Origin: Candidatus Tayloriibacteriota bacterium
GTDB lineage: Bacteria > Patescibacteriota > Minisyncoccia > Phycocordibacterales > PALSA-1337
Direction: 5' to 3'
Assembly (NCBI GenBank): GCA_003151615.1
Contig: PLXZ01000003.1
Coordinates: 3,545-67,544, forward strand
Length of the DNA stretch: 64,000 nucleotides
The first letter of the stretch is position 1. Each line of letters opens with the position of its first letter. The position numbers and the translations under genes are program-made. Below the pieces are notes generated by a model that saw nothing but the letters and a program-made list of their open reading frames with translations, was not told the origin of the DNA and did not search any database. Shown here one piece after another: positions 824-32,437 of this stretch.

Positions 824-1057
824 ATGAAGGTGATTTCATCTCTGCTACCCTATATACAGATTGTACTCGCAATCGTACTGATTGCGGTTATTCTCCTGCA
901 ACAGACGGGTGCCGCCATGGGCGGTGCGTTCGGCGGAAGCGACAATTTCAGCTCGGCTTTCCACACGCGTCGCGGATTTGAAAGAACCCTCTTTATCACA
1001 ACGATAGTGATCGGCATTCTGTTTGCTGCATCGGCAATCATCAACCTCATTTACTAA
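824..1057 (+). CDS. secG: Preprotein translocase subunit SecG
   Basis: 77 aa with two TM helices and the central LLQQ-G-AAMGGAFGGS glycine-rich motif typical of SecG. Confidence 0.7.
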   Translation: MKVISSLLPYIQIVLAIVLIAVILLQQTGAAMGGAFGGSDNFSSAFHTRRGFERTLFITTIVIGILFAASAIINLIY

Positions 1058-1131
1058 TTTACCAATTTTTGGTTTAAAAAATCTTTACCTGCAATCGGCG
1101 TACCCGCCATTCAGGAACGGACCATATTACC

Positions 1132-2913
1132 GTGAACGAAACCCAGGAAAAAAATCAGGAACAAAACGAAAAAGAGCTGCGCATCAAAGGCAGTAAAAAA
1201 ATCCTCGGCATGCTCCGAAGCTTTTCCGCGACTGAAAAGGTCATTTTTGCCGTGCTTGCAATCATCATGTCCGTAACCGCGACGATTCTCGCAGCCCGGA
1301 CAAATGCCCTTTTTTTGGTGCCTGTGCCGACGCAGGGCGGACAGCTGGATGAAGGCGTCGTGGGTCTTCCCCGTCTCATTAACCCTGTTTTGGCCTTCAC
1401 GGATACGGATCGCGATCTCACGGCCCTTGTCTATGCCGGACTTATGAAATATGAAAACGGAAATCTTGTTCCGGACCTGGCGCAGAGTTACACCGTATCG
1501 GCCGACGGGTTGACCTATGCTTTTACGCTCAAACCAAATCTCCAGTTCCAGGACGGCACGCCGCTGACGGCTGACGATATCCTCTTTACCATTCAGGCGA
1601 TTCAAAACGCCGCGCTGAAAAGCCCTCTTGCCGCGGACTGGGCGAATATTTCCGTGACGAAACTTTCGCCGAACCAAATTCAGTTCGTGCTGAAACAGCC
1701 GTATGCCCCGTTTCTTTCAAACACAACCATCGGCATCCTGCCAAAACATATCTGGAACAATGTCAGCACCAACGAATTCATTTTCAGCGAATATAACGTG
1801 AATCCAGTCGGCGCTGGCCCGTATAAAGTCGGAAGCATTGCGCGAAGTTCGAGCAATGTGCCCACTTCATATACGCTCGTTCCATGGAACAACTACCAGG
1901 GCGGCGAAGCCTACATTTCCAATATAGTCTTTCATTTTTTCTCCGACGAGAAGAGCGCGGTGGACGCGTATGAGAACGGGACGATAGACGCAGTTTCAGG
2001 AATTTCTTCTGATGATGCGGCGCACATCGGTTCAACAACTCCCGACGCGTCGGTATCCTCGCCCGTCCTGCCCCATATTTTCGGAGTTTTCTTCAATCAA
2101 AATCAGCAATCAATTTTGGCGGACGCGGCGGTGCGCCAGGCTTTGAATATCGGTCTCAATAAAAACGTTATCGTCAATGAAGTCTTCGACGGATACGCCA
2201 CGCCGATAAACAGCGCGATTCCCGTCGGCACGCTTTCAAATCCGGCGACATTCGATCCAAACGGAAGCACGACTGAAGCCAAAGCCATTCTTGTAAAAGA
2301 CGGCTGGACGATGGGAACGCAGGGTGTTTTTCAAAAGTACGCCAAAAAAACCGGCACGACGACCCTGGCTTTTTCAATATCGACTTCAAATTCTCCGAGC
2401 CTGACCCAGACCGCGAATATTTTGAAACAGCAGTGGGCAAACATCGGCGTCCGGGTAACCGTCAACATATATGAACAAAGCGACCTTAATCAGAACGTCA
2501 TCGCGCCGCGAAAGTACGACTCGCTTCTGTTCGGCGAGTCGTTCGGAACGGTTCCGGACCTGTACGCATTCTGGGATTCTTCGCAGAGAAATTCGCCGGG
2601 ACTTAATATTGCGATGTACGTCAACGCTTCGGCAGACAAGCTTCTCGAAGGCGCGCGAGCGGCATCAGACCCGACAGTCCGGCTTTCGGATTACGCTTCG
2701 TTCGATAAAATTATGCAAAACGACATGCCTGCGGTATTTCTTTACTCACCCGATTTCATATACGTCATGCCGGACAGCGTGAAAGGCACGGAAAACATCT
2801 CGGCCGCCGGCAACAGCGTGACGGATGCGTCGGACCAGTGGGACGGAGTATCGAAATGGTACATAGACACCGACAGCGTTTGGAAACCATTGGCAAAGTA
2901 CGCTCAAAATTAA
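1132..2913 (+). CDS. ABC transporter substrate-binding protein, family 5 (oligopeptide/dipeptide-binding, OppA/DppA-like), N-terminal TM-anchored
   Basis: 593 aa. GTG start; an alternative ATG lies at 1210. The N-terminal hydrophobic anchor is followed by a typical SBP_bac_5 fold, judged by length and conserved blocks such as DGTPLTADDILFT and YAFWDS. Confidence 0.8.
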   Translation: MNETQEKNQEQNEKELRIKGSKKILGMLRSFSATEKVIFAVLAIIMSVTATILAARTNALFLVPVPTQGGQLDEGVVGLPRLINPVLAFTDTDRDLTALVYAGLMKYENGNLVPDLAQSYTVSADGLTYAFTLKPNLQFQDGTPLTADDILFTIQAIQNAALKSPLAADWANISVTKLSPNQIQFVLKQPYAPFLSNTTIGILPKHIWNNVSTNEFIFSEYNVNPVGAGPYKVGSIARSSSNVPTSYTLVPWNNYQGGEAYISNIVFHFFSDEKSAVDAYENGTIDAVSGISSDDAAHIGSTTPDASVSSPVLPHIFGVFFNQNQQSILADAAVRQALNIGLNKNVIVNEVFDGYATPINSAIPVGTLSNPATFDPNGSTTEAKAILVKDGWTMGTQGVFQKYAKKTGTTTLAFSISTSNSPSLTQTANILKQQWANIGVRVTVNIYEQSDLNQNVIAPRKYDSLLFGESFGTVPDLYAFWDSSQRNSPGLNIAMYVNASADKLLEGARAASDPTVRLSDYASFDKIMQNDMPAVFLYSPDFIYVMPDSVKGTENISAAGNSVTDASDQWDGVSKWYIDTDSVWKPLAKYAQN

Positions 2914-2963
2914 ATCAAAAATTAACAAAATTATAAATCATTAATAATAACTCATAGAAAATC

Positions 2964-4991
2964 ATGAACCCTCCAGCAAATAACACAGACAGCAAGACAG
3001 AAAATAAGACTGCGCAGAAAACTCCGGCGTCAGCAATACCGGCATCCGCACAGACGACTGCACCAGCTGGTTTTTCGCCGCGTCCAGGCGGACCTTCGCG
3101 CGGAGGAAATCGCGGCATGGGCGGCGGAATGCGTGGCGGCTCACGAGGCGGTTCTCGCGGAGGCGGAGGGGGTATGAGAAGCGGAGGTTCACGGGGCGGA
3201 CGGAATGACCGACGCCCGGGCCCGCGTCCCGCAATGACTCAGATTCATAAACCTGTTGAAGACAGCGTTCCGCCGCTCGCGGCCGATTCGATTCGCATCA
3301 TCCCGCTCGGCGGCGTTGAAGAAATCGGAAAAAACATGACCGCCATCGAATTCGGCGAGGATATCATCGTCATCGACATCGGCTTTCAATTCAAAGACGA
3401 GAGCACTCCCGGCATCGACTATATTTTGCCGAACACAAAATATTTGGAAGAAAGAAAAGGTAAAATCCGCGCGGTCATCGTGACCCACGGCCACCTCGAC
3501 CATATCGGCGGAATCCCCTATATCATGCCGCGCATCGGCAATCCGCCTTTGTATACCCGCCTCCTCACTTCGATTTTGATCAAAAAGAAGCAAGAAGAAT
3601 TTCCGCATGAACAGCCGCTCGACATCAAGCTCGTCGAAAAAGACGAATCAATCACCCTCGGCAAATTGAAGGTGAAGTTTTTCGCGGTGACCCACACCAT
3701 TCCTGATGCCATGGGAATCATCGTCGAAACTCCGTACGGCGACATCGTTCACACGGGAGACCTTAAACTCGACCATGTTGACGGCGTACCGACGGACGAG
3801 GAAGAAGCGGAATACGACAAAAAATTCAAAAACCGAAACGTGCTCATGCTCATGGCCGATTCGACGAACGTGGAAAATCCCGGTTTCTCGACTCCGGAAA
3901 AATTGGTGCACAAAAATATCGAAGAAATCATAAAAAATGTGAAGGGACGTTTGATCGTCAGTACTTTCGCATCGCTTTTCGAGCGAACCTTGAAAATCGT
4001 GGAGCTCGCCGAAAAATACGGAAAAAAAGTCTGCGTCGAAGGCCGTTCGATGAAAAACAATATTGAAATCGCGATGAAACTCGGTTTGCTCAAGCCGAAA
4101 AAAGATACTTTGATTACGGCCGAACAAATCGACCAATTCCCTCCTGAAAGGATTATCATTCTGGCGACCGGTGCTCAAGGCGACGAATTCGGCGCAATCA
4201 TGCGCATTTCAAATAAAACGCATAAAAGCATCCGCATCACAAAACGCGACACTATTTTGCTTTCGTCATCGGTCGTTCCGGGCAATGAACGCGCGGTTCA
4301 ACGATTAAAGGACAACCTGTCACGCCAAGGCGCGCACATCATCCACTATCGCATGGCGGAAATTCACTCGTCCGGACATGCCAATAAAGACGAAACGGCC
4401 TGGATCCACAAGAAAATCCATCCGCGGTTCTTCATGCCGGTTCACGGATACCATTATATGTTGCGCGTGCACGGCGATCTCGCCCGCGACGCGAACAATT
4501 TGCCTGAAGACGCAATCATCATCCCGGACAATGGTTCAGTCGTTGAAATCCAGGGACTTTCGCTGGGCGGCGGCATTGACAAAAAAAGTCCCGACGCAAA
4601 AATCGTCAAGCTCGAACAGAAGGCCCCGTCCGGCATCGTTATGGTTGACGGTTTCTCGGTCGGCGACATTCAGGACGTGGTCATCCGCGACCGACAGGCT
4701 TTGGCACAGGACGGAATCTTCATCGTCTTCGCAATGATCAATGCCCAGACCGGCAAGCTCCGCAAATCCCCCGACATCATTTCCCGAGGCTTCGTCTATC
4801 TGCGCGAATCGCAGGAACTTCTCCATCAGGCGCGCCTCGTCATCAAAAATACCATCGAACAATCAACAAAAGGCCAAAACCCAATCAACATGGATTATGT
4901 AAAAGGCGCAATTACCGAAGACATCAGCAAGTTTTTGCTGCAGAAAACAGCGAAGCGACCGATTGTCATTCCGGTGCTGTTGACGATTTAG
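2964..4991 (+). CDS. rnj: Ribonuclease J (metallo-beta-lactamase/beta-CASP RNase) with RGG-rich N-terminal extension
   Basis: HGHLDHIGG zinc-binding motif, a beta-CASP region and an RNase J C-terminal domain. The first ~95 aa are low-complexity Gly/Arg-rich (RGG repeats). Confidence 0.9.
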   Translation: MNPPANNTDSKTENKTAQKTPASAIPASAQTTAPAGFSPRPGGPSRGGNRGMGGGMRGGSRGGSRGGGGGMRSGGSRGGRNDRRPGPRPAMTQIHKPVEDSVPPLAADSIRIIPLGGVEEIGKNMTAIEFGEDIIVIDIGFQFKDESTPGIDYILPNTKYLEERKGKIRAVIVTHGHLDHIGGIPYIMPRIGNPPLYTRLLTSILIKKKQEEFPHEQPLDIKLVEKDESITLGKLKVKFFAVTHTIPDAMGIIVETPYGDIVHTGDLKLDHVDGVPTDEEEAEYDKKFKNRNVLMLMADSTNVENPGFSTPEKLVHKNIEEIIKNVKGRLIVSTFASLFERTLKIVELAEKYGKKVCVEGRSMKNNIEIAMKLGLLKPKKDTLITAEQIDQFPPERIIILATGAQGDEFGAIMRISNKTHKSIRITKRDTILLSSSVVPGNERAVQRLKDNLSRQGAHIIHYRMAEIHSSGHANKDETAWIHKKIHPRFFMPVHGYHYMLRVHGDLARDANNLPEDAIIIPDNGSVVEIQGLSLGGGIDKKSPDAKIVKLEQKAPSGIVMVDGFSVGDIQDVVIRDRQALAQDGIFIVFAMINAQTGKLRKSPDIISRGFVYLRESQELLHQARLVIKNTIEQSTKGQNPINMDYVKGAITEDISKFLLQKTAKRPIVIPVLLTI

Positions 4992-4993
4992 TC

Positions 4994-5146
4994 TCTAGAT
5001 ACATTAAGTACAAGGAACCCGTATATACACTTTTCAAGAGACACGGAAATTTGAGGGCTTCAAATTTCCTCACCTCCGGACCGACGTCCGTCGGCAGGTC
5101 TCTCGTAAAGTATATATACGGGTTCCTAGTGCTTGTATATCTAGAT
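4994..5146. repeat. 153-bp nested imperfect palindrome (MITE-like or bidirectional terminator structure)
   Basis: Outer arms tctagatacattaagtacaaggaacccgtatatacacttt (4994-5033) and aaagtatatatacgggttcctagtgcttgtatatctaga (5107-5145) are near-perfect inverted repeats. Inner hairpins gaaatttgagggcttcaaatttc and ccgacgtccgtcgg lie inside. The element sits between the convergent rnj and the 5218..6144 gene. Confidence 0.7.
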
Positions 5147-5217
5147 TAATAGTCAACAAAAAAAGCAATCAGAAATGACTCCGACTGCTTGTGAAATAAC
5201 GAACGCGCTACGACATT

Positions 5218-6144
5218 TCAAACTGACACAAGTTTTTCGCATTTGTTGTCAATGTAGAAGCTTGCCTGACCGACAAATGAAGCAAGTCCGGCAAGCAACG
5301 TGAGCGACTGGAGCGGACTGTCAACATTGTGACAGGTAAACTCGCGGCCTTCACCCGGACGACGGGAATAAAACCCTGTGTTGATGCCGCATGCGTCACC
5401 GGGAACAGTAAGCCCAATGGAACTGGAATCGCAGTCAACACGGATCGTCCCGCGAGCATGCGTATATCCATTCCCCCACATGTGCGTTTCCGCGGCAATC
5501 ATTGCTTCAAGGACATTTTTTACGATAATATGCTTCAACTCAAACGGATTTGAAGCGACATAATCAATAAAATCGGCACCGAAATAACCGTCGACTCCAC
5601 TGCCGTGCTGGCCATGCCGAGCTATTACGGAGACAGTAACATGTTGATGTTCCTTGGCGGAAGTGTCCTCGTCAACATCAAGAATTGCGAATAACAAACC
5701 AAGGCTGGAGGTAACGGCATACGCCGCCCGCCAGTCGTAAGTGTGTTGTATTTTGCTACCGTCGCAACGCAGGCATTTTTCGCCTTCACGCCATTCGTCA
5801 ATGCTTTCGCCGGTGCCGGCGCAATGTTCACAGGTAAAATGCGTCGGCATTTTGATGTGAGGAAGCAAAACACGAAACTCAAGATAATCCCCTGAGTCAC
5901 GCGTCTTTTGAAGCGCATGGTTGAAACCAAAAGAATCGCCCCCCGCAAGATCACCTGAAAAAGAATCAAAAAATGTATCCAAATCATGCGTTTGGATTAT
6001 GTTTTGAATCCACGGCGCATCCCTGGAAATAACTTTGACGAAACGAAGACAATCGCGATGAACGTCAACGATAATTGCCTCTTGATTGCTATCCCAGCGT
6101 AAATGATACTTCCGCGGGATACGGTCATACTGCATTAATTTCAT
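5218..6144 (-). CDS. Hypothetical protein with DnaJ-type CxxCxGxG zinc-finger hairpin
   Basis: 308 aa. CEHCAGTGE-x13-CLRCDG matches the CR-type zinc-finger repeat. I recognised nothing in the rest of the protein. Confidence 0.5.
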   Translation of the reverse strand: MKLMQYDRIPRKYHLRWDSNQEAIIVDVHRDCLRFVKVISRDAPWIQNIIQTHDLDTFFDSFSGDLAGGDSFGFNHALQKTRDSGDYLEFRVLLPHIKMPTHFTCEHCAGTGESIDEWREGEKCLRCDGSKIQHTYDWRAAYAVTSSLGLLFAILDVDEDTSAKEHQHVTVSVIARHGQHGSGVDGYFGADFIDYVASNPFELKHIIVKNVLEAMIAAETHMWGNGYTHARGTIRVDCDSSSIGLTVPGDACGINTGFYSRRPGEGREFTCHNVDSPLQSLTLLAGLASFVGQASFYIDNKCEKLVSV

Positions 6145-6275
6145 AAGAACCCTTTTGTTAAAGATTGACTGAGATTAGAATACACCTTCACTAGGTTTAG
6201 TCAAATGAACGCAAAAATTTTAGTAAAATTTTATTCTTTTTTTAGAGAAAATTCATTTCGATTTGATATCGTAAA

Positions 6276-6653
6276 TTGATGTCAAAAGAAGAATTAAAAG
6301 AATTCATAAAAAATACTCGTGAAAAATACAAACATATAAGGTACGTAGAATGTCCAGCCTTTGGAGGTGAAAAAATATATTTTACCAAACATGGATTCAA
6401 TCATCTTTTGAGAAAAGGTCGAATACCGCGAAGTATGGACGAACAAATACGGAGACTCAAATTACTAAGATATGTCGTTAAAATAATTGAGAAAAACCAT
6501 GCATTTGAGAGTTATCGAAAAGCTGAAAAACTCAATTCTATTCTGCATTTCTGGTCTTTTAAAAAGGTCATCGCCGGTAAAACCATTTTTGTAGTTATTT
6601 GCCAAAGAAACGACAAACCTAAAACATTCCTAAGCATCATGGATAAAAATTAA
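6276..6653 (+). CDS. Hypothetical protein (AT-rich gene)
   Basis: 125-aa ORF. It is divergent from 5218..6144 and shares an AT-rich promoter region with it. A clear intrinsic terminator follows. Confidence 0.5.
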   Translation: MMSKEELKEFIKNTREKYKHIRYVECPAFGGEKIYFTKHGFNHLLRKGRIPRSMDEQIRRLKLLRYVVKIIEKNHAFESYRKAEKLNSILHFWSFKKVIAGKTIFVVICQRNDKPKTFLSIMDKN

Positions 6654-6669
6654 GCAGTTGACCATACGC

Positions 6670-6697
6670 GCAAAAGACCCCGAAGGGTCTTTTCATA
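6670..6697 (+). terminator. Rho-independent terminator
   Basis: aaaagaccccgaagggtcttttc: GC stem, cgaa loop, then a T-run. Confidence 0.7.
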
Positions 6698-6854
6698 GTG
6701 TCCACCATCAGCGACAATGCCGATAGAATGTATGGTGCGCAAAACCATCAGACGCGAACATTATTGCCATTAATAGTAATCTTTTGAAAAAAATTTGTCA
6801 ACAGATTGATTATTGATAACTCTGCTATAATTATCAGCATAAACTTCCAATAAA

Positions 6855-8033
6855 ATGCGCCACCACCCGTCGATCAATCATCCGACAAAGATTGTCTACA
6901 CGATCCTTCTCATCGGTTTCATTTATACCCTGCACCTGACATTGCCGGTGTACATCGCGTCGAGCTTCCTTTCGACCTTCACAGACGAAAACACGGTCGG
7001 ACTGCTCTATACGATTGCGTCGCTTTTCACTATCCTTGGCCTGTTTTTGATCGGTCCGGTTTTGACGCGCTTCGGCAACTATCGGACTTCTCTGGCGCTG
7101 ATTGCGATCCAGCTTCTGCTCTTTTTGGGCTTCATAACGGCCACTTCGTTCAATGCGATTGCGGTCATATTCATCGTGTCGACGGCGATCGTGGCTCTTA
7201 TGGGATTGAACCTCGACGTTTTTTTGGAGACCTATTCCGAAGTTCGCAACACCGGCGGCATCCGCGGTTTATATATGGCGATAAACAATGTGGCTTGGAT
7301 TTTGGCACCACTTTTGGGCGCGGCGCTCCTTGTCGGCATTCATTACCGCAATGTGTATGTTGCGGCATTCACGCTTCTTTTTGTTCTGCTCTATCTTATA
7401 TATAAAAATCTGCGGCATTTCGAAGATCCGCATTACGGACATCTGTCCTTTCATCAGACGCTCGGACGTGTATTTAAAAACAAGGATCTCTCCAAACTTT
7501 TTGCGGCAAACATTATTTTGAACACCTTCTACAGCTGGATGGTCATTTACATGCCAATCTATTTGTACAAAACGATGGGCTTCAGCTGGGACAGCATCGG
7601 CATCATATTGACGGTCATGCTTTTGCCATTCGTCATATTTCAATATCCGGCCGGCCGATTGGCTGACAGCGGCTGGGGCGAGAAGAAAATCATGAGCCTC
7701 GGCTTTCTCATCATGGGCCTTTCCTGCTGTGCCCTGGCGTTTATAACGACCAACAGCCTCATTGTGTGGGCCGTGGCGCTGTTTGTGACGCGCATAGGAG
7801 CATCGATCGCCGAAGTCATGATTGAAGCCTATTTCTTCAAAAAAGTCAGCCCAGAAAATGCGGATTTACTGACATCATTCCGCGTGACGCGATACGGCGC
7901 ATACATCATCGCTCCGGCAATCACCGCCATCGGCATTTATTACGGCATCAATAATGGAAACATTTTTATTGTCCTCGGCTTGATTATTTTCTGGGCACTG
8001 CGATACACGCTGACGATTACGGATGTGGTTTAG
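6855..8033 (+). CDS. MFS transporter
   Basis: 392 aa with about 12 predicted TM helices and MFS-type loop motifs (for example GRLADSGWGEKK between TM helices). Confidence 0.8.
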   Translation: MRHHPSINHPTKIVYTILLIGFIYTLHLTLPVYIASSFLSTFTDENTVGLLYTIASLFTILGLFLIGPVLTRFGNYRTSLALIAIQLLLFLGFITATSFNAIAVIFIVSTAIVALMGLNLDVFLETYSEVRNTGGIRGLYMAINNVAWILAPLLGAALLVGIHYRNVYVAAFTLLFVLLYLIYKNLRHFEDPHYGHLSFHQTLGRVFKNKDLSKLFAANIILNTFYSWMVIYMPIYLYKTMGFSWDSIGIILTVMLLPFVIFQYPAGRLADSGWGEKKIMSLGFLIMGLSCCALAFITTNSLIVWAVALFVTRIGASIAEVMIEAYFFKKVSPENADLLTSFRVTRYGAYIIAPAITAIGIYYGINNGNIFIVLGLIIFWALRYTLTITDVV

Positions 8034-8278
8034 AAGCCGGCGACGGATTTCGATTTCAAATATACTGCCACAGCCTCCCTGTCCGAATCCGCGAGAATTT
8101 CACCGTCGATATCGAGTGTCGGCGTTTTCGTCTGGCCCGATTTCGCGACAAGCTCGTCGAAATACGCCTTGTTGCCGAGGACTTCGCGCTCTTCATATTT
8201 GACGCCTTTTTCGGCGAAGAGATCGAGAACTCCCTTGCACCACGGACAACCGCGTTTTGTGTAGAGGATTATGGTCAT
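8030..8278 (-). CDS. Glutaredoxin-family protein (NrdH/Grx-like)
   Basis: 82 aa with a CPWC active site near the N-terminus and a thioredoxin fold. An extended -10 (TGcTATAAT) lies about 10 nt upstream of the ATG. Confidence 0.8.
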   Translation of the reverse strand: MTIILYTKRGCPWCKGVLDLFAEKGVKYEEREVLGNKAYFDELVAKSGQTKTPTLDIDGEILADSDREAVAVYLKSKSVAGF

Positions 8279-8321
8279 TAGATTTTTATTATAGCATGAG
8301 TGCCGGGAGTGCTTTTTCCTT

Positions 8322-8440
8322 CATCAGCATGCAAATGCGAATGCGAAAATCAGACCCTATATTTTAAGCCATACTTTGTGCGTAATTTATATTAAATTCG
8401 CATTTGCATGCTGATGATGTTTAAAGAAAGACTCGCTCCC
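8322..8440. repeat. Hairpin-forming repeat element, copy A
   Basis: catcagcatgcaaatgcgaatgcgaaaat ... attaaattcgcatttgcatgctgatgatg forms a long stem, followed by the tail tttaaagaaagactcgc. A second copy lies at 10569-10752. Confidence 0.8.
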
Positions 8441-8485
8441 GTCCGTTCGCGTACCCGTCCGCGCCTCCATTCCAACGACACATTA

Positions 8486-9391
8486 TTATTTTTTCAATTC
8501 CGCTGACGCAACAACTTCCCACTCCTTCAAAACGCGGCGCGCTTCGATAGTCAAAAACATCGGGATTTCCTTGCGGATGCGGTTTTCTTCCTCGGCGCGC
8601 GGGCCGGCGACGCTGTTTTTATGCGAAACCCATTCCTCCAAACGGGCCACGTTGAAGCCGGCCTTGGTCAAAGTCTTGAAATACACCTGCAACGGACGGT
8701 GGAACGAAACCGTGAATTTTTTTGAGGTCGCTCGATCCTCACCCGGAGTCATGTCGATTCGTTCGCGGGATTCGGACATATATGCGTCGATGCGACGATA
8801 TTGATGACCTGCGCCCGGAGCGCCCTTGCCCGGTTCGCTGACATGATCCCACTGCCAGCTCGAGCGTTTCGGTATTCGGAATGCCGGATGGTTCAAGACG
8901 ATGAACAAACGACCGCCTGATTCAGTTGCCGTCGCCGGCCTCAAAACGCGCGCGCATTCCTGCATGGTTCCGGCCAAGTCCTCAATATTTTGTAAAGCCA
9001 AAACGACCGTAATGAGATCGATGCTTTTGTCCGTGATAAATTTCAGCGAATTCGACGGTGCGACATGATATTCGATTTTCCGCGTGACTGCGTCGGGATT
9101 TGCCTTGGCAATTTCAATCAGTTCCTTTGCGATATCCGCGCCGAAGACTTTCGCGGGACCTTCACTCGTTCCGCCGGCCTTTCCGCTTTGCCCAACTTTC
9201 GCCAACTCACGCGCGAAAAATCCCTGACCGCATGCAAGGTCAAGGACATTCGCGCCTTTGAGCGCACTGCTTCCGATCATCCGCATAAGATTCGGCAAAA
9301 TAACGTCTTTCTGATACGTACCCTCCCGCTTCTCGAGAAGCTCGTCATACCAGCCGGACACGCCGCCCCATGAAGTTTTCGTTGTGTTCAT
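8486..9391 (-). CDS. Class I SAM-dependent methyltransferase with ~100-aa C-terminal extension
   Basis: VLDLACGQGFFAREL is motif I and FIVLNHP is the motif IV region. I place the start at MNTTKTSWGG (9391), which overlaps the stop of the upstream nuclease gene by 1 nt (translational coupling). The track ORF extends to 9532 in another frame of the nuclease gene. Confidence 0.75.
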   Translation of the reverse strand: MNTTKTSWGGVSGWYDELLEKREGTYQKDVILPNLMRMIGSSALKGANVLDLACGQGFFARELAKVGQSGKAGGTSEGPAKVFGADIAKELIEIAKANPDAVTRKIEYHVAPSNSLKFITDKSIDLITVVLALQNIEDLAGTMQECARVLRPATATESGGRLFIVLNHPAFRIPKRSSWQWDHVSEPGKGAPGAGHQYRRIDAYMSESRERIDMTPGEDRATSKKFTVSFHRPLQVYFKTLTKAGFNVARLEEWVSHKNSVAGPRAEEENRIRKEIPMFLTIEARRVLKEWEVVASAELKK

Positions 9392-9392
9392 A

Positions 9393-10193
9393 TTATTTTT
9401 TATGATTATTCTTGACGACTTTCGCAACCGCATTTCGGTACAAACAATAATCGCAATCGTCCGCGGCCGGCGGCACCGCTTCGCCATCAAGACACTTTTT
9501 ACAATCAAACAAAGCACCCTCGACCCACGCATCCGAACCGGTATACGGAATTAAATCAATATCAAATTCAAGCTTGCCATCAAATGACTTTCGATCGGTT
9601 TTTCCATTGCAGTACACAAAATATCCCGTGTCGGAAACGGTAAAACCGGTGCGACGGACGAGCCATTGATACATTTCCATTTGGCGCTTGTAACCGCCCT
9701 GCCATTCGGCATCGAGCGTGACTTTTGTCTCTTTGCTTGTGGCCTTGTAATCGACAATGATGATTTCGTTCTTGCCTTTTGGACCGGCCTTTTCGCGAAC
9801 CCATAAATCATCGACGGCTCCGGTCATGATGAAATTCGTCGGCTCATGATGAAATTGGACGCCTTTAAAATTTTCGCGCCACTCGTCAAGCTTGCTGTGG
9901 GCGAACGGAATTGCGTCGAGTCCGTACGCCTTCATGAGCGGATGCGCCGTTTTTTTGGCACGGTGAATGTCAAATTCCTTTTTGAGAAGGGTGTCGACGG
10001 CGGAATTGAGGGCAAAAGGATATCCTGGCGGACGTCCCACGCCAAGCCGCCGGTCCAGATAGAAACAGCGCGGACAATCAAGAAAAAGCTCTATTTTCGA
10101 ACGCGAAAGGCGAAAAGGTTCGCCGTCAGGCGCTGCGTTTTTCTTCGGATCATAGAGGTTACGGCTGCGATTCGGATTATAGTATTCGGACAT
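9393..10193 (-). CDS. PD-(D/E)XK nuclease, RecB/Cas4-like with Fe-S cysteine cluster
   Basis: An N-terminal CPRC cysteine plus CKKC-x13-CDYC near the C-terminus give the 1+3 Cys arrangement of Cas4/AddB nuclease domains. GAVDDL and IVDYK give the D...(D/E)xK motifs. RQMEMYQWL gives the RecB-family QxxxY motif. Confidence 0.75.
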   Translation of the reverse strand: MSEYYNPNRSRNLYDPKKNAAPDGEPFRLSRSKIELFLDCPRCFYLDRRLGVGRPPGYPFALNSAVDTLLKKEFDIHRAKKTAHPLMKAYGLDAIPFAHSKLDEWRENFKGVQFHHEPTNFIMTGAVDDLWVREKAGPKGKNEIIIVDYKATSKETKVTLDAEWQGGYKRQMEMYQWLVRRTGFTVSDTGYFVYCNGKTDRKSFDGKLEFDIDLIPYTGSDAWVEGALFDCKKCLDGEAVPPAADDCDYCLYRNAVAKVVKNNHKK

Positions 10194-12070: not shown

Positions 12071-13825
12071 TTACTTAACATACCCCAATAAAACCCTCGC
12101 CAAACGGATGTCCTTGAACGAAACGCTCGCACCTACTTTTGATTTGACGGGAGAAAGAAGCGGTGGTTTGCCTTCGGAATCGCCAGTCTGGGCGAGAGAA
12201 ACTTCTTCCATGGCTGTCTCAATTTTTTTAAAATGTTTCGCGGAAATTTCGTGTTTCAAATATGCGATGTCGGATTGCGAAATAGTTTCGTCCGCGATGA
12301 GGCGCTCTATGTGGTCGATGACGGTTTCAACGACAATGCCGCGCGCCGTTGCAATTTCTTTCAAGGATTTTTTCTGAAGAAGCAACTTGGCAGTGATATC
12401 GAATGTCGAAGTTTTTCCAGAACGATAGCCGGTGAATTCTTCATCGCCCTTCTTCCCCATCTTATGCATCGGCGCGGCCTGGGCCAAAAATTCGTTTTGC
12501 GAACGGGCGATTTCAACGGCATCAGTGCCGGACAAAACAGACTGGGCCTTGTCTGACAATGTGCGAAGATTGCGATCATATTTTAAAACTTCAGGATGGA
12601 CCTGCAGAGCCGCTTCGTTTATTCCCAAAATAGTGAGGCCTGCGAGCGTCCGCACGCGCGACAAAGCCACATATCCCATACCAGGCTCAAACGAACGCGA
12701 CAGGTCGACTTCAATGGCGTCGAGGCTCATTCCCTGGCTTTTATGCACGGTAATGGCCCAGGCCAAACGCAGTGGGTACTGATTGATTTCGGCGATGACG
12801 CGGCCTTCGTCTTCGATTCGCCAGCTGGCCTGTTCAATCATGATGCGCTCGCCCTGCGGATGTTCGCGCGACGGTGCAGTAATGATCGTCGGATCAAGAC
12901 CCGGTCCGCAGGAAACGACGACGCCGAGCGTTCCATTTACGTATCCCTTGTCAAAATTATTTTTGACGCACATGACGCGCGCGCCTTTTCGCAGACGCAA
13001 AGTTTCCGGCGCAAGACATGATTTTTTCAAGCCATCAACAAGCGGTTTTCGCCCGGTCGAACGCATTTCATATATAAATTCGGGAGAATTGACTTTCGAC
13101 AGTGCATTCTCGTTTATGACATCAACATCCGCATTGTGCGTATACAACCGCGTCGATTCAACCATCGGCAAACCTTCATCGTCCACAAGTTCCGACCGGA
13201 CGTTATGGCGACTGCGCAAATGTTCGCGGGCTTCGTCGGAAACTTCGCCGCTGCGGATTTCATTCAAAATGGTCAAGGAAATATCATCGACCTGTCGGTA
13301 ATTTTCGGACAAATAGCAGACGGTAAATTTTCCGTCATGCCATGCCTTTGAACGATATATGAAATGAGTCTCTCGGTCGCCGTATCGCGACACCGGCGGA
13401 AGCTGAAAAAAATCTCCGCACAAAACGACCTGCACGCCACCGAACGGCTTGTCGGATTTACGGACATGCTTCATAACCTGATCAATCAAATCAAGTCGGA
13501 AATGGTGCAGCATCGAAACCTCGTCGATGATCAGAACTTTCGTCTCCTGCATTCGCTTGCGCAGCCCCGCTTTATCAAAAATCGATTCCAAATCGTGCTC
13601 GGTCAAATCGTCTTTTACTCCAATTCCCGACCATGAATGTATGGTCATGCCGCCCATATGTGTTGCCGCGATTCCGGTGGACGCGGTAATACCCGTCGGC
13701 ACGCCGTGCTCACGCAAATACGCAATATATTGATTGACGACATGCGTTTTACCGGAACCCGCCGGTCCCGTTATGAAAACATTCACGCCCGTCTTTAAAA
13801 TGTCGAGTGCTTCGCGCTGAATCAT
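12071..13825 (-). CDS. ATP-dependent DNA helicase, Pif1/RecD-like (SF1B) with C-terminal HTH domain
   Basis: Walker A GPAGSGKT, LIIDEVSM (Walker B/DExx), and the Pif1 family C-terminal region with an HTH-like segment. Confidence 0.85.
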   Translation of the reverse strand: MIQREALDILKTGVNVFITGPAGSGKTHVVNQYIAYLREHGVPTGITASTGIAATHMGGMTIHSWSGIGVKDDLTEHDLESIFDKAGLRKRMQETKVLIIDEVSMLHHFRLDLIDQVMKHVRKSDKPFGGVQVVLCGDFFQLPPVSRYGDRETHFIYRSKAWHDGKFTVCYLSENYRQVDDISLTILNEIRSGEVSDEAREHLRSRHNVRSELVDDEGLPMVESTRLYTHNADVDVINENALSKVNSPEFIYEMRSTGRKPLVDGLKKSCLAPETLRLRKGARVMCVKNNFDKGYVNGTLGVVVSCGPGLDPTIITAPSREHPQGERIMIEQASWRIEDEGRVIAEINQYPLRLAWAITVHKSQGMSLDAIEVDLSRSFEPGMGYVALSRVRTLAGLTILGINEAALQVHPEVLKYDRNLRTLSDKAQSVLSGTDAVEIARSQNEFLAQAAPMHKMGKKGDEEFTGYRSGKTSTFDITAKLLLQKKSLKEIATARGIVVETVIDHIERLIADETISQSDIAYLKHEISAKHFKKIETAMEEVSLAQTGDSEGKPPLLSPVKSKVGASVSFKDIRLARVLLGYVK

Positions 13826-14579: not shown

Positions 14580-15629
14580 CTAAACCCGGGCTTTTGAACT
14601 CCGGTAAATTTCAAGAAGCGAAAAGAGGAGCGCCAAAACTAACGGACCGAGGACGAAGCCAATCGGACCGAAGAAGACGATGCCGCCAAGAACCGACAGC
14701 AAGATGACGAATTGGTGGATTTTAATTCCGCGGTTGACCACGTAGGAGCCAAGCATGTTGTCGATGAGGATAATCGCCATGATTCCCCAGATCACCAGGC
14801 CGATTGCCGGACCGAAATTGCCCGTCAAAAACAGATAGACGATTCCGGGCACCAGGACAAGCGACGTGCCGATTCCCGGAATGAGGGCCGCGATCGCGGC
14901 GATGGAGCCCCATACGACGGGGCTTGGCACTCCGAAAATAGCGAAGCTCGTGCCGATCGAAATACCCTGCAAAATCGCCACTGAAATCGAGCCGACGAAA
15001 ATCGCCCGCACCGCCTGTTCCAATTTCGCGAAAATATGCTGGTCGTCGATGTCGCCGAGCGGCGAGAGCATGATGATCTGGCGCTTCAACTCATGCCCGT
15101 CGCGCAGAAAATAGAAGAGGGCCAGACACATGACAAAAAATCCGACGGTGATGCGCGCTACTTCGGCGAAGACGACATTAAAATTGCTGAAAACCCATTG
15201 CAAGATATTCTGCACGATGCCGACAATGTTGAACGAATCAAAGGTGAAGCCCGGATAGAGATTTGGGAAATAACCTTGGAGTGTGCCGAATGCCGTATTG
15301 AGAGTATTAATGAAAGCCTGCCTTCCCGCTTCATTTATCAGATACGCATACATCGAATTCGCTTCATCGTAAATTTTCAGCAGAACGAATATAAGCGGAC
15401 CGACAACGACGACGGCAATGACCACTACGGTCAGCAACGCACCGAATGTGCTCTTTTCACGCTTGCCAAAAAAAGTATTGGTAATCCATCGGTGCAAGGG
15501 GTCGAAAATAACGGCCAATGCCATCGCTAAAACGAGCGGTGTCAAAAACGGCAGGAAGATAAAAACGGCCAGCACCATAACCGCGAGAAGCAATCCGAAG
15601 AAAAAATAGCTGGGTGCGGGAGATATCAT
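14580..15629 (-). CDS. AI-2E family transporter (PerM/UPF0118)
   Basis: 349 aa with 8 TM helices. It has the typical AI-2E architecture, with a long N-terminal TM pair, a central soluble loop and a C-terminal TM bundle. Confidence 0.85.
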   Translation of the reverse strand: MISPAPSYFFFGLLLAVMVLAVFIFLPFLTPLVLAMALAVIFDPLHRWITNTFFGKREKSTFGALLTVVVIAVVVVGPLIFVLLKIYDEANSMYAYLINEAGRQAFINTLNTAFGTLQGYFPNLYPGFTFDSFNIVGIVQNILQWVFSNFNVVFAEVARITVGFFVMCLALFYFLRDGHELKRQIIMLSPLGDIDDQHIFAKLEQAVRAIFVGSISVAILQGISIGTSFAIFGVPSPVVWGSIAAIAALIPGIGTSLVLVPGIVYLFLTGNFGPAIGLVIWGIMAIILIDNMLGSYVVNRGIKIHQFVILLSVLGGIVFFGPIGFVLGPLVLALLFSLLEIYRSSKARV

Positions 15630-18402: not shown

Positions 18403-18924
18403 CTAAACTTTCACACTAGGATCAAGAGCTTTTTTTAATTTTTCTTTAAGATTTTCAATCGGTTCTAAATCAGAAATTTTTTTTGTAAGCTTAAAACTTG
18501 AATTTTGGTTTTTTCCCATTGAAACCAAGTTTCCTGCTAAACCGGTCGCAACATCCCCTTTATTCCAAATTCCAAAAACCAAATGATCTGGAGTAACACC
18601 AAGACACAATAAATAATCATATTTTGAATCATACCTAATATGATTAAATTGAAAATTTCCCGATATGTCTTCTGAAGCTAGTTTTACTTCAAATTTTTTA
18701 TCAGCAATCTTTAAATCCCAATCTCCAAGTCGTTCCAATTTTTCAACAGTAAAATTAAGTTCTGTTACATATCTTTTAATAAATTCTTCACCTGCATCAC
18801 CTTTACTACTGTTCGGTAGATTTTTGAAAGCTTGATGCGGTTGACCTGCCCATTTTTCATGTATCAATTTCGCCCCAATTACTTCAAGAAATAGTTTATT
18901 CGGATCAATCATTTTTGAGGCCAT
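18403..18924 (-). CDS. Putative Type II restriction endonuclease (small PD-ExK candidate)
   Basis: 173 aa and AT-rich. It overlaps the upstream DNA methyltransferase gene by 20 nt. GDWD ... FEVKL is compatible with a PD-(D/E)XK core. The assignment rests mainly on context. Confidence 0.45.
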   Translation of the reverse strand: MASKMIDPNKLFLEVIGAKLIHEKWAGQPHQAFKNLPNSSKGDAGEEFIKRYVTELNFTVEKLERLGDWDLKIADKKFEVKLASEDISGNFQFNHIRYDSKYDYLLCLGVTPDHLVFGIWNKGDVATGLAGNLVSMGKNQNSSFKLTKKISDLEPIENLKEKLKKALDPSVKV

Positions 18925-19837
18925 TATTTAATAAAGCTAATTTAATATGATACATAGAAATATGTCTGCAGTTATGAGTGGCTAAATTACTATACTTATT
19001 CCAATCTATATTTTTAAGAATATTTTTTATTTTTCTTATATCTTTTTTAATTATAATACCGTATCCACAACCATATTTTACTTCTGAAAAATTATTTACT
19101 AGTATAGGTGGATTACCAAAATATGTTCTCTGTAAAAAGGTATCGCAACTCTTAATCTTCTTCATTCCGCACAATCTCTCCTTTCTCATATCAACAGTAA
19201 ATAGCTCAACAAAACTATCACAAAAACTTAAATCAGGCAATGCTGGCGCATCACCTTTTTTCCAAATCTGCCATAGGGTATTGACTTGAACGTGTTCTCC
19301 ATTTGGAAGAACAAACAAATCACCAGAAAGTTTTTCAGAATGAACAAGCGTCATTCCTATTACTCTATTTTTTGGACTTCCTTTACCATCACTTTGAAAT
19401 GACATCGGAAGAATAAAACCAACATAGTCACAAAACTCAGCTGCACGATTCAAGAAAGCTAAAGCAAGCCAACCCCTATAACCAAAAGGAGGATTACCGA
19501 TCGCAATACAAGGTCTCTGATCTGTATTATTTGGCATCCATGTCAAAAAATCTTGCTGTATATATTCTTTATTAAATTTTTCAACATCAATACCAATACG
19601 ATTATTCTTAGGAAGAAGATTATAAAAAGAACCCGTACCTGCGCTTGGCTCGACAATTTTATAATTCTTTATTGATGCACCATCATTTTTGAGAAATTTT
19701 TGAAATGAATTCCAACAGTATTCAGCAACTTTTGGTAGAGTATTATACTGATCTAAACCTACTTCCCTACCACGTACCCAATTTGGAATACGATCAGTAT
19801 TTTCCCAAGCTTTATTTCTAAGAATAGTTGCATTCAT
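18905..19837 (-). CDS. N6-adenine DNA methyltransferase, gamma class (Type II R-M modification subunit)
   Basis: EPSAGTGSF (motif I) precedes IGNPPFG (motif IV NPPF), and a C-terminal target-recognition region follows. The gene is very AT-rich relative to its flanks. Confidence 0.8.
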   Translation of the reverse strand: MNATILRNKAWENTDRIPNWVRGREVGLDQYNTLPKVAEYCWNSFQKFLKNDGASIKNYKIVEPSAGTGSFYNLLPKNNRIGIDVEKFNKEYIQQDFLTWMPNNTDQRPCIAIGNPPFGYRGWLALAFLNRAAEFCDYVGFILPMSFQSDGKGSPKNRVIGMTLVHSEKLSGDLFVLPNGEHVQVNTLWQIWKKGDAPALPDLSFCDSFVELFTVDMRKERLCGMKKIKSCDTFLQRTYFGNPPILVNNFSEVKYGCGYGIIIKKDIRKIKNILKNIDWNKYSNLATHNCRHISMYHIKLALLNNGLKND

Positions 19838-26681: not shown

Positions 26682-27719
26682 TTAGCGCGACGCTTTTATT
26701 ATTTTAACATATTCCTCGACCGCCGCCACTATTTTTTTCTTTGCATCATCGAGAGATACGCCTTTGAGCACGACTCCCGCCGCGGCCTTATGTCCGCCGC
26801 CACCGAGCGATTCGGTTATTTTCGCGAGATCGTATTTTTTGGCATCGCGCGTGCGGAAACTTACTTTTATATTTCCCGGCGCCAGTTCGGTTATGCAAAC
26901 GCCGATATCCCAGCCGACCGCCGATTTTATGATGTTTGCTACCATTCCTCCGTTTATGCTCAATTCAGTGACGCCGATTTCCCGCAAACGAACCGCCGAA
27001 ACCGAGGCGACTGCCAGGAAACCGCCGAGAAATGTCTCTATACTGCCCAGCGCCGCGCCCTGAAACAAAAGCTCCTGCTGGCTTCGCGAATTGTCCATGG
27101 TAAACAGAAAATCCGAAAAATCAGGCGCATTCCGGACCAATTCAGCCGCTGCTGAAAACGTTTCGGGTGTTGTCGTCGCAAACCGAAAACCGCCCGTATC
27201 CGTGTACGAACCCATGAAAAGATTGAGGGCGATATCGTGCGTCAATTTAATTCCCCATTCCTTGAACAGATCAAATAAAATGAGCGTCGTTGACGGATAT
27301 TCGGTCACGACCAAATTGATGTCGCGGGCGTAGTTGAGATTGCTGACATGATGGTCGATGTTGACCGTTTTCATGGTTTCCGGAAAAAAGATTTCATCCA
27401 CCCCCTTAACCTGGGATATTCTGTCGAGCGAGCCGCTGTCCAAAATCAAAAACAAGTCGAATTGCGACCGGTCAATTTCAAAAAAGTTTTTCGGAACAAT
27501 TTCGGCCGCACCCGGAAGTCGCGCAAAAACCTCAGGAATAGAGCTGTCGCCGCGAATGAGGGTTGCTTTCTTGCCAAATTGTTCGAGAGCTAATTTCATG
27601 GCCAAAGCCGAACCGATTGAATCGCAATCGGGAAAAATATGGCAATGAAGCAGGATATTTTTAGAAGCCTTGATAAGTTCGAGTATTTTCGGCGCAGTGT
27701 TTTTAACGTTTTCGGTCAT
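26682..27719 (-). CDS. nrnA: DHH-family phosphoesterase (NrnA-like oligoribonuclease/pAp phosphatase)
   Basis: DHH motif (NIDHHVSN), DHHA1 with GGGGH near the C-terminus, and a length of ~345 aa. Confidence 0.8.
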
Positions 27720-30247: not shown

Positions 30248-30326
30248 GCAGTAATTTTACGCTCATGGTTGAAATACGCAACTGGCGCAGGATATTTTTT
30301 TGTGTCTTATTCAGAATTGAGTTCCA

Positions 30327-30974: not shown

Positions 30975-32348
30975 CTATTCAACAAACGTAAGAGCTTTCC
31001 CTTTCTTGCCACCTCTGCCGGTTCGGCCGATGCGATGGACATAGTCGTCGTAGGTTGCGGGAATTTCGAAGTTGATGACGTGGGTAACGCCGGAGATGTC
31101 GAGGCCGCGGGCCGCAACGTCGGTGGCGACGAGAACTTGCACGTGGCTCTGCTTGAACATGGTCAGAGCTTTCTGTCGGCTGCCGTGAGTTTTATCTCCG
31201 TGAATCGAGTCTGTCTTGAATCCGCGATCATTCAAAATTTTCGCCAATTTTTCGGCACCGTGTTTTGTGCGGGTGAAAACGAGAACTTTGCCAAAGCCGG
31301 GTTGCGTGAGCAGATCCGACAAAACATCTACTTTCATTTTCCCTGAAGGCACGCGCACGACGTCCTGATCCACATTTTTTGCGGTGTCCTGAGTTTTTAC
31401 CGAAATTCGCGCGGGATTATACAAAAACTGATTGATCAGAGCTTCGATTTCGCGCGACAATGTCGCGGAGAAAAACAATGTGTGACGCTTTCCCGTCGGC
31501 GGCATAGCCGGCATTTTGCTCATGAAAAATTTCATGTCGGCAATGAATCCCATGTCGAGCATGCGGTCTGCTTCGTCCAAAACAACTGTATTAAAAAGAG
31601 CGAGGTTCAAAACTTTTCGTTCGATGAGGTCCTTGATTCGTCCCGGCGTACCGATGACAAAGTTATTGTGATAGCGGAGTTCGCGGATCTGCGGACCGAT
31701 TGGCGCGCCGCCGACGACACAGACCGAAAAAATCTTCAAACTGTCACGATTTGTCGCAATGCCGGCAAAACCTTTCAATTCCTGGTCAATCTGAATTGCC
31801 AATTCGCGGGTCGGGGCGCAGATGAGAATGTTTTCCTTTTGGCCTTGACCTTTATCCTGTGCAGCCAACACTTTGCTGATAAGGGGAATGAGAAATGCCG
31901 CCGTCTTGCCGGTACCCGTGTTTGCGATGCCGACGACGTCTTCACCTCGGAGAATATGAGGAATGACACGGTCCTGAATCGGAGTCGGAGCCGTGTAGCC
32001 TTTCGTCAGAATATTTTTCTTGAGACGTTCGTCGATGGCGAAGTCCGTGAAGTTGTGTTCGGGTTTGAAAACGTCTACTTCTTCAGTAATGACGGCCTTG
32101 TTGATGAAACGCGCAACGTCAATGCGTTCGCCTTTCGGTCCGCCGCCTCGGCCTCCTCTACCCCCGCCGTATCCGCCGCGACTTCCGCCAGAGCCACCAT
32201 AACCGCCGCGAGAACTGTAACCACCTGAACGCGGTGCGTATCCGCCACGCGAAGGAGCACCGAAACGCGAAGCGCTTCGGGGTGTAAAACCGCCGGACCG
32301 CGGTGATCGCGATGCCGAGCTTGATGATGAGTTTCCTTTAGGATTCAT
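30975..32348 (-). CDS. DEAD-box ATP-dependent RNA helicase with RGG/SR-rich N-terminal extension
   Basis: Q-motif, Walker A (ANTGTGKTAAF), DEAD (VVLDEADRMLDMGF), SAT, and the HRIGRTGR motif VI. The first ~85 aa are Gly/Arg/Ser/Tyr-rich. Confidence 0.9.
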   Translation of the reverse strand: MNPKGNSSSSSASRSPRSGGFTPRSASRFGAPSRGGYAPRSGGYSSRGGYGGSGGSRGGYGGGRGGRGGGPKGERIDVARFINKAVITEEVDVFKPEHNFTDFAIDERLKKNILTKGYTAPTPIQDRVIPHILRGEDVVGIANTGTGKTAAFLIPLISKVLAAQDKGQGQKENILICAPTRELAIQIDQELKGFAGIATNRDSLKIFSVCVVGGAPIGPQIRELRYHNNFVIGTPGRIKDLIERKVLNLALFNTVVLDEADRMLDMGFIADMKFFMSKMPAMPPTGKRHTLFFSATLSREIEALINQFLYNPARISVKTQDTAKNVDQDVVRVPSGKMKVDVLSDLLTQPGFGKVLVFTRTKHGAEKLAKILNDRGFKTDSIHGDKTHGSRQKALTMFKQSHVQVLVATDVAARGLDISGVTHVINFEIPATYDDYVHRIGRTGRGGKKGKALTFVE

Positions 32349-32407
32349 GAGGTGCTAAGAGTATATTAAATTAGGACGATTGTCAAGAAATGCCCGCGTA
32401 CAAACAA

Positions 32408-32437
32408 AAAAGAAACCATAGCGGTTTCTTTTTTGAG
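32408..32437 (-). terminator. Rho-independent terminator for the doxX-like gene
   Basis: agaaaccgctatggtttct hairpin followed by tttttgtttg on the minus strand. Confidence 0.6.

Follow-up and report, generated by a model that had tools for sequence, protein, structure and literature searches.

Basic, RG-rich N-terminal tails on ribonuclease J and a DEAD-box helicase in a Patescibacteria genome

Disordered arginine-rich extensions organise bacterial RNA metabolism, with examples in the C-terminal domain of RNase E, RhlE, Type II RhlB and the ribonuclease J (RNase J) of Helicobacter pylori. In a 64,000-nt stretch of a Candidatus Tayloriibacteriota genome (contig PLXZ01000003.1, positions 3,545 to 67,544; hereafter the window), we examined two such extensions, one on RNase J and one on a DEAD-box RNA helicase, both at the N-terminus. 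An N-terminal extension of RNase J was previously described as specific to Helicobacter (PMC10700544; bioRxiv 10.1101/2020.05.11.085670), and its deletion in H. pylori dramatically lowers nuclease activity, leaving its binding to the helicase RhpA, and its stimulation of RhpA, unaffected (PMC3592473). In Pseudomonas aeruginosa, the intrinsically disordered region (IDR) at the N-terminus of Type II RhlB raises RNA binding, ATPase activity and unwinding and brings about liquid–liquid phase separation (LLPS) that depends on RNA (bioRxiv 10.64898/2026.03.23.713837). C-terminal IDRs define the function of RhlE proteins in the same species, and the basic, R/G-rich disordered extensions of RhlE-type helicases govern RNA binding, LLPS and nuclease interaction (PMC11260450). 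RGG/RG domains in general bind RNA with degenerate specificity (PMC5570134). The two window proteins carry translated, positively charged and predicted disordered N-terminal tails of independent origin that are conserved across their lineage, and these tails probably serve as non-specific RNA-binding tethers, as judged from their composition and these precedents.

The two enzymes and their N-terminal tails

The RNase J gene (2964..4991, + strand) encodes 675 aa in a single open reading frame (ORF) that includes the tail. Its product has the metallo-beta-lactamase, beta-CASP and RNase_J_C domains (Lactamase_B, PF00753/PF12706; RNase_J_b_CASP, PF22505, E 3e-40; RNase_J_C, PF17770, E 4e-25), and the zinc motif HxHxDH is present as HGHLDH (aa 175-180). 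The score against TIGR00649 (477 bits; NCBIfam cutoff 400) places it in the RNase J family, and it matches the Bacillus subtilis and Staphylococcus epidermidis RNase J1 structures with E 1e-130. The RNase J1 (RnjA) equivalog NF047419 was not reached (567 bits; cutoff 820). By profile score, the enzyme is a generic single RNase J, assignable to neither J1 nor J2. The identical protein was found on ENA and NCBI metagenome contigs.

The helicase gene (30975..32348, − strand) encodes 457 aa with a CshA/RhlE-like core and no C-terminal extension. Membership of the DEAD-box superfamily 2 is clear from PF00270 (DEAD, E 2e-41), PF00271 (Helicase_C, E 2e-30) and a core confidently predicted by AlphaFold2, and motifs Q, I (ANTGTGKT), II (DEAD), III (SAT) and VI (HRIGRTGR) were all located. 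None of the bacterial subfamily equivalogs (CshA, RhlE, RhlE2, RhlB, DeaD, SrmB, DbpA) passed its NCBIfam cutoff; the best model was CshA (377 bits, below the 646 required), and the nearest subfamilies are CshA, RhlE and RhlE2.

Curated models and solved structures align to both proteins only from residue ~95–110. The preliminary description of this DNA had reported RGG-rich low-complexity N-termini on both enzymes; the sequences that it quoted are exact, and each contains a tri-RGG. It had also given the RNase J tail a length of ~95 aa. The low-complexity start stands, and the length needs a small revision: measured against solved RNase J proteins, the extension comprises ~105 aa in three parts. 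The first is a polar head rich in T, P, A, N and K (aa 1-39, 2964..3080, + strand; MNPPANNTDSKTENKTAQKTPASAIPASAQTTAPAGFSP), with a predicted local distance difference test (pLDDT) score of ~30; an MNP, MEN or MNE start followed by a T/P/A/N-rich head recurs among RNase J homologs. The second is an RG/RGG block (aa 40-84, 3081..3215, + strand) with the tri-RGG RGGSRGGSRGG (aa 57-67, 3132-3164) and four Met. The third, a junction motif (aa 84-105, 3213..3278, + strand; RPGPRPAMTQIHKPVEDSVPPL), joins the tail to the catalytic core and is conserved across Paceibacteria with the consensus ...RPSRPPEATQxHKKVEDxxPPL, the Met being replaced (EATQ) in most relatives. The RNase J tail has 12 Arg against 3 acidic residues, a net charge per residue (NCPR) of +0.13 and 1% aromatic residues. 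The helicase tail (aa 1-75, 32124..32348, − strand) includes an RG/SG/Y block (aa 14-70, 32139-32309, − strand) and the tri-RGG RGGYGGGRGGRGG (aa 57-69, 32142-32180); it has 11 Arg against 1 acidic residue, NCPR +0.16, pLDDT ~40 and 8% Tyr/Phe.

By its formal definition, a tri-RGG is RGG-X0-4-RGG-X0-4-RGG, the other classes being di-RGG, tri-RG and di-RG. Both tails have at least one tri- or di-RGG within Gly/Arg-rich low complexity, the hallmark of an RGG/RG domain, and no RG motif class occurs within the RNase J and helicase cores. In a six-frame scan of the 64 kb, 40-aa stretches with at least 50% Gly+Arg were confined to the RNase J and helicase ORFs and to a shadow of the RNase J tail in another frame. 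In 50 related genomes, for which 562 kb of DNA with 891 ORFs of at least 80 aa was examined, the RG-rich ORFs were RNase J orthologs only. The tails thus exceed what chance would give. No comparable tail was found on the window's other RNA or nucleotide proteins (an NrnA-like DHH/DHHA1 protein, two NUDIX hydrolases and a Pif1-like helicase).

Disorder of both tails, as the preliminary description had proposed, is predicted by several measures. AlphaFold2 was run on alignments of 46 and 48 sequences. Aa 1-99 of RNase J scored pLDDT 27-40 with no DSSP elements, aa 1-72 of the helicase scored ~40 with no secondary structure, and in each case the core folded. Both tails fall under the Uversky charge–hydropathy boundary. 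They also behave like IDRs in their fast sequence turnover with preserved frame and composition.

Translation, distribution and origin of the tails

Several independent signals show that both tails are translated. When the DNA of the window was aligned, with no guidance from protein, to that of its two closest sequenced relatives, all indels were multiples of 3, both in RNase J (6, 12, 18, 24 and 57 nt) and in the helicase (3, 6, 12, 18 and 66 nt). GC content is raised at codon positions 1 and 2 of the tails and not at position 3: GC at the second position (GC2) is 0.78 in the RNase J RG block (core 0.33) and 0.84 in the helicase tail, the range being 0.78-0.84 in tails against 0.33-0.37 in cores. 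Therefore, the bias is set by amino-acid composition and not by the DNA. In the closest comparison, synonymous to nonsynonymous changes numbered 26:29 in the tail and 234:47 in the core. Synonymous changes are over-represented relative to neutrality, which is consistent with an IDR in which composition, rather than the residue at each position, is constrained. Because the junction motif lacks a Met in most relatives, translation of RNase J must start upstream of it. In the helicase, M1 is the sole Met of the first 130 aa. Two 'short-tail' helicases (P0124, L052:2863-4203; P0127, L053:2890-4200) proved to be start-codon miscalls with frames open upstream; the corrected ORFs are 46 and 37 codons longer, reach a conserved MNSxRNF start and have RG-rich tails of 63 and 52 aa. 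Public gene calls sometimes shorten low-complexity tails by picking an internal Met, and the RNase J entries P0006 and P0029, which start MTQIH/MTQMH, probably reflect the same artefact.

The tails are a general feature of the lineage. Among RNase J homologs, 112 of 120 have a tail of at least 30 aa (median 61, maximum 114), and among helicase homologs 114 of 120 do (median 65, maximum 200); no tail in either set is net negative. Loss of the tails in close relatives, which the preliminary description had said would speak against its proposal, is therefore not what the orthologs display. At 47 genome loci, with core identity down to 39%, an open frame of 24-208 codons continues upstream of the RNase J core and codes for basic sequence of low complexity, with extensions of 24-200 aa. 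The 47 loci span Paceibacteria and the Yonath-, Vogel-, Azam-, Magasanik-, Falkow-, Moran- and Gracilibacteria.

On RNase J, the RGG motif itself is more restricted. Tri- or di-RGG was present in 14/19 homologs with at least 82% core identity and in 6/93 below, where the tails are rich in T, N, P, S and H. What is conserved, therefore, is disorder together with positive charge. From this distribution, RGG on RNase J appears as a local flavour of the basic disordered extension, with Taylorbacteria-like Paceibacteria carrying an RGG-rich version. Within the RNase J tail of one Paceibacteria sub-lineage (L008, L009, L014-L019), a conserved island of ~30 aa was observed (HRxVLGKGxRKHPExLRHxAGARMNVxRKE), which is not in the window protein; it resembles a short linear motif, or else an element that folds on binding to some partner.

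RG/RGG motif classes occur on 89/120 helicase homologs, whose tails average 24% Gly, 17% Arg, 18% Ser, 8% aromatic and 1.6% acidic residues. Neither the window helicase nor any of 120 close homologs (120/120) has a C-terminal extension. In an exhaustive core-only search of 1.8 billion cluster representatives, we surveyed the 138 complete top ones (P0241-P0390): 76 had an N-terminal extension only, 50 a basic C-terminal one only, 9 both and 3 neither. The N-terminal-only layout dominates above ~47% identity to the window helicase core, with extensions of 40-320 aa. Distant relatives have a C-terminal basic extension of 40-370 aa and a core starting from residue ~3, in an RhlE-like layout, which agrees with the preliminary statement on the usual C-terminal position of such tails in bacteria. 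Since one representative with an N-extension comes from an 8.1-Mb contig, the layout also occurs outside the Patescibacteria, or candidate phyla radiation (CPR). The family resembles an RhlE/CshA-type enzyme that has been flipped and so carries the basic tail at the N- instead of the C-terminus.

A shared module or recent duplication of both tails was considered and rejected, as the longest DNA string common to the two is 10 nt and blastn gave no significant match. Replication slippage as a current driver was likewise rejected, with a weak 12-nt periodicity (score 37) in the RNase J tail, none in the helicase tail and mixed Gly and Arg codons in both. In the absence of shared DNA similarity and tandem DNA repeats, and with mixed codons, the two tails evolved independently and are compositionally convergent. 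A distance of 26 kb separates the two genes in the window, and one of 17-26 kb in two relatives; they are nowhere adjacent and not operonic. Both tailed proteins co-occur in 3/3 genomes examinable for both (the window, Ga0480561_0001239 and GCA_964952985).

The start regions of the window genes have features of their own. At 16/48 window genes, 4-14 nt separate the end of a TATAAT-like box from the start codon that follows, where 2.3 ± 1.5 would be expected at random positions; the helicase ATG at 32348 is among the 16. Shine–Dalgarno-like motifs precede only 8/48 genes; neither RNase J nor the helicase has one before its ATG, which is uninformative because such motifs are rare genome-wide. 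Leaderless-type starts are seen, for example, at 12071-13825(-), 14580-15629(-), 18905-19837(-) and 28567-29166(-), and further at 30975-32348(-), 39532-40344(-), 59835-60491(-) and 62738-63400(-), which suggests that leaderless or near-leaderless mRNAs are widespread in this Paceibacteria genome. Upstream of the helicase, a promoter-like pair (32360..32386, − strand) of TTGACA (32381-32386) and TATACT (32360-32365), separated by 15 nt, ends 11 nt before the ATG and is kept in the relative L052. It tentatively implies a very short or absent 5′ leader. A consensus promoter scanner made no call upstream of RNase J or the helicase; the helicase pair was missed because the scanner requires a spacer of 16-18 nt. 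Given this miss, and with the promoter evidence coming from positional enrichment only, the helicase promoter is a tentative and supportive element. Between the helicase and the DoxX gene upstream of it lies a terminator-like palindrome (32405..32435), which sets the transcription unit of the helicase apart. A structured RNA element in the GC-rich tail-coding mRNA was rejected (folding z = -0.41, unremarkable), and the whole 64 kb contained no Rfam family or tRNA.

Several neighbouring features were noted around the two genes. Over the RNase J tail lie an antisense ORF of 90 aa (2962-3234, − strand) and an Arg-rich ORF of 66 aa in the +2 frame (3008-3205); these are by-products of GC-rich, stop-poor (GGN/CGN)n coding and not genes. 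Synteny is kept around RNase J (824-9532 in the window; L051, L054), in the form of SecG, an SBP_bac_5 solute-binding protein, RNase J, a major facilitator superfamily (MFS) transporter and a class-I methyltransferase. The window has an extra ORF after RNase J (5218-6144, − strand), encoding 308 aa with CxxC pairs (CEHCAGTGE...CLRCDGSK) and no Pfam match. The syntenic class-I methyltransferase (8486-9532) was considered as a protein arginine methyltransferase and rejected, as it matches the small-molecule enzymes ToxA and UbiE/MenG instead. Between the helicase and an extracytoplasmic function (ECF)-type sigma factor (28567-29166), the interval 29414-30782 (− strand) contains a 151-aa fragment and a Bro-N domain protein (29414-30247), Bro-N being a domain associated with phages and mobile elements. 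The fragment, a gene remnant, matches the C-terminal 40% only of a flavin mononucleotide (FMN)-dependent dehydrogenase (profile positions 205-348/350). Neither is present in L052 or L053, and the interval may therefore be a small insertion or a scar of decay. Elsewhere, at 26682-27719 (− strand), 34680-35258 (+ strand) and 48893-49630 (− strand), the window encodes the NrnA-like DHH/DHHA1 oligoribonuclease/pAp phosphatase and the two NUDIX hydrolases, one of which lies 2.3 kb from the helicase and has a weak YtkD/MutT-like match, making it a possible RNA pyrophosphohydrolase. The Pif1-like superfamily 1 helicase (12071-13825, − strand) has a 2B domain and a C-terminal HTH_40 in this reduced CPR genome.

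Possible functions of the tails

As probable non-specific RNA-binding tethers, the tails would be selected for composition (Arg, Gly and Ser, net positive charge and almost no acidic or hydrophobic residues) and not for sequence. Arg guanidinium groups on flexible Gly/Ser spacers would hold RNA near the catalytic core, and the higher local RNA concentration there could raise the affinity, unwinding or annealing of the helicase; the RNase J tail would likewise improve substrate capture. In the helicase lineage, the N-terminal tail replaces the basic C-terminal IDR of classical RhlE/CshA-type helicases, and on RNase J a basic disordered N-extension occurs clade-wide in Patescibacteria. Precedents from H. 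pylori RNase J, Type II RhlB and RhlE/RGG domains support the tethering of RNA by the tails, and it is by analogy with them that we infer RNA binding and stimulation of activity. A likely by-product would be that both enzymes cluster on shared RNAs in an RNA-dependent way. Several points weigh against tethering as a full account. The RNase J tail, with its few aromatic residues and many Met, is unlike well-studied RGG domains and may behave differently, and its polar head (aa 1-39) and junction motif are unexplained by simple electrostatic RNA binding. The islands in the RNase J tails of some lineages hint at a specific partner over generic RNA, and the assignment of function itself draws on composition and analogy. 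Should RNA tethering or the driving of condensates be confirmed, the tails would give a simple handle on how RNA turnover is organised in uncultivated minimal-genome bacteria. They would also provide short natural RGG modules (45-60 aa) with which to study how sequence governs RNA binding and phase separation.

Instead of binding RNA for each enzyme separately, the RGG tails might be assembly modules that join RNase J and the helicase in a degradosome-like complex or condensate, an analogue of bacterial ribonucleoprotein bodies (BR-bodies) without the RNase E scaffold. This idea, raised by the preliminary description, is plausible by analogy: the N-terminal IDR of Type II RhlB drives RNA-dependent LLPS (bioRxiv 10.64898/2026.03.23.713837), the RNase J/RhpA degradosome of H. 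pylori assembles into foci (bioRxiv 10.1101/2020.05.11.085670), and the two tailed proteins were found together in every genome where both are visible (n=3). As the role of these tails, however, joining the two enzymes is unlikely. The genes are distant (17-26 kb) and not co-transcribed, and the tails are like-charged polycations with hardly any acidic residues, so in the absence of RNA direct attraction between them is improbable. Outside close relatives, RNase J does not keep the RGG motif (6/93), its tail is short of aromatic 'stickers' (1%), and the likeness to condensate scaffolds consists only of a compositional resemblance to the LAF-1 RGG domain (bioRxiv 10.1101/2020.01.06.894576). In H. 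pylori itself, RNase J binds RhpA without needing the N-extension (PMC3592473), and no stable complex formed in vitro (PMC10700544). A broader form of the idea is that Patescibacteria, with their ultra-small cells and reduced genomes, carry out RNA decay and remodelling in condensates that depend on RNA and are nucleated by the polycationic N-terminal IDRs of RNase J and the main DEAD-box helicase. Such a system would substitute for the RNase E scaffold and be convergent, in architecture and composition, with the RGG helicases of eukaryotic germ granules (LAF-1/Vasa). We regard this as quite unlikely; if it were true, N-terminal IDRs would be a phylum-level hallmark of CPR RNA metabolism.

Many basic-tailed bacterial DEAD-box helicases, including SrmB, DeaD, DbpA and RhlE, work in ribosome assembly. 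The window tails could similarly target their enzymes to ribosomes or pre-rRNA for biogenesis or quality control, like the basic extensions of ribosomal proteins and assembly helicases. Consistent with this, the SrmB, DeaD, DbpA and RhlE models all match the helicase core, RNase J and RhpA of H. pylori associate with translating ribosomes (PMC3592473), and the junction motif and the lineage-specific RNase J islands could be docking motifs. Such targeting is nevertheless very doubtful, since the sequence has no specific sign of ribosome binding, there are no ribosomal genes nearby and the proposal overlaps with generic RNA binding.

It is highly improbable, and largely refuted, that the tails are annotation artefacts, with true starts further downstream (e.g. 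RNase J Met91) and a GC-rich upstream region that is merely an open untranslated leader. GC-rich DNA does stay open by chance, as the antisense 90-aa (2962-3234) and off-frame 66-aa ORFs demonstrate, some database entries begin MTQIH (P0006, P0029) and neither ATG follows a Shine–Dalgarno motif. Against these stand the frame-preserving indels, the GC2-driven composition, the conserved MNP/MNS starts, the Met-less junction in relatives, the lack of an alternative helicase Met, the genome-wide rarity of Shine–Dalgarno motifs and the unremarkable mRNA structure (z = -0.41).

Finally, the N-terminal location and Arg pairs could suggest a cleaved signal, twin-arginine translocation (Tat) or transit peptide or a membrane anchor, a reading of negligible probability that is refuted by composition: peak 12-residue Kyte–Doolittle hydropathy is 0.45 (RNase J) and -0.38 (helicase), low enough to exclude signal, Tat and membrane-anchor sequences, there is no h-region or amphipathic helix and none is predicted by AlphaFold2, and both proteins are cytoplasmic RNA enzymes, so that cleaved targeting sequences, which the preliminary description had itself named as a counter-explanation, do not account for tails lacking any hydrophobic stretch.

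Comparison with described systems

Our literature searches for CPR/Patescibacteria together with DEAD-box proteins, disorder or RGG found nothing. Within the literature searched, the clade-wide N-terminal IDR on Patescibacteria RNase J appears to be unreported, as does a systematic N-terminal RGG-type IDR that replaces the C-terminal one on the principal CshA/RhlE-like helicase of the group. An RNase J N-extension deemed a Helicobacter peculiarity turns out to be clade-wide in Patescibacteria. Public gene calls sometimes cut off the tails of these enzymes.

The H. pylori enzyme is the closest in organisation to the window RNase J, with a long predicted-disordered N-extension (132 aa), a small genome and a DEAD-box partner, RhpA (PMC10700544, PMC3592473). 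Among solved RNase J proteins, an N-terminal offset of similar size is seen only in the full-length H. pylori enzyme (8cgl, core from residue 143). No homology was detected between the two extensions, as the phmmer alignment to 8cgl starts at the core; the window tail is RGG- and Met-rich, belongs to a Patescibacteria-wide set and is independent of that of H. pylori. The partner helicases also differ, in that the predicted IDR of RhpA is C-terminal (bioRxiv 10.1101/2020.05.11.085670) and that of the window helicase N-terminal. RNase E and its BR-bodies offer a further parallel, namely an Arg-rich disordered region on a decay nuclease that is proposed to concentrate RNA and partners. In RNase E, however, the nuclease fold is unrelated and the scaffold region is C-terminal, much longer and has mapped partner-binding microdomains.

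For the helicase, P. aeruginosa Type II RhlB shares a DEAD-box core with a disordered N-terminal extension. It differs in that the window helicase scores best with CshA/RhlE and not RhlB, and in that the partner nuclease of RhlB is RNase E; the RGG motif is unmentioned for Type II RhlB (bioRxiv 10.64898/2026.03.23.713837). The closest catalytic cores are those of RhlE-, RhlE2- and CshA-type helicases, in which the extension is at the opposite terminus and Asp+Glu make up ~8-20%, compared with 1.6% in the N-terminal tails.

By shifting a basic IDR from the C- to the N-terminus, the main CshA/RhlE-like helicase reproduces the layout of LAF-1, DDX3X/Ded1 and Vasa/DDX4, in which an N-terminal RGG IDR precedes the DEAD-box core. 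DDX3X and Vasa are among the top solved-structure matches to the window helicase core, and the tails of LAF-1-type helicases and the window helicase are compositionally close (Arg ~14-15%, Tyr/Phe ~7-8%, Lys ~0; bioRxiv 10.1101/2020.01.06.894576). The window tail is shorter than that of LAF-1 (75 vs 168 aa) and lacks its acidic residues and eIF4E-binding motif, and the protein lacks the C-terminal prion-like tail. The likeness to eukaryotic RGG helicases is convergent and compositional, with no evidence of common descent.

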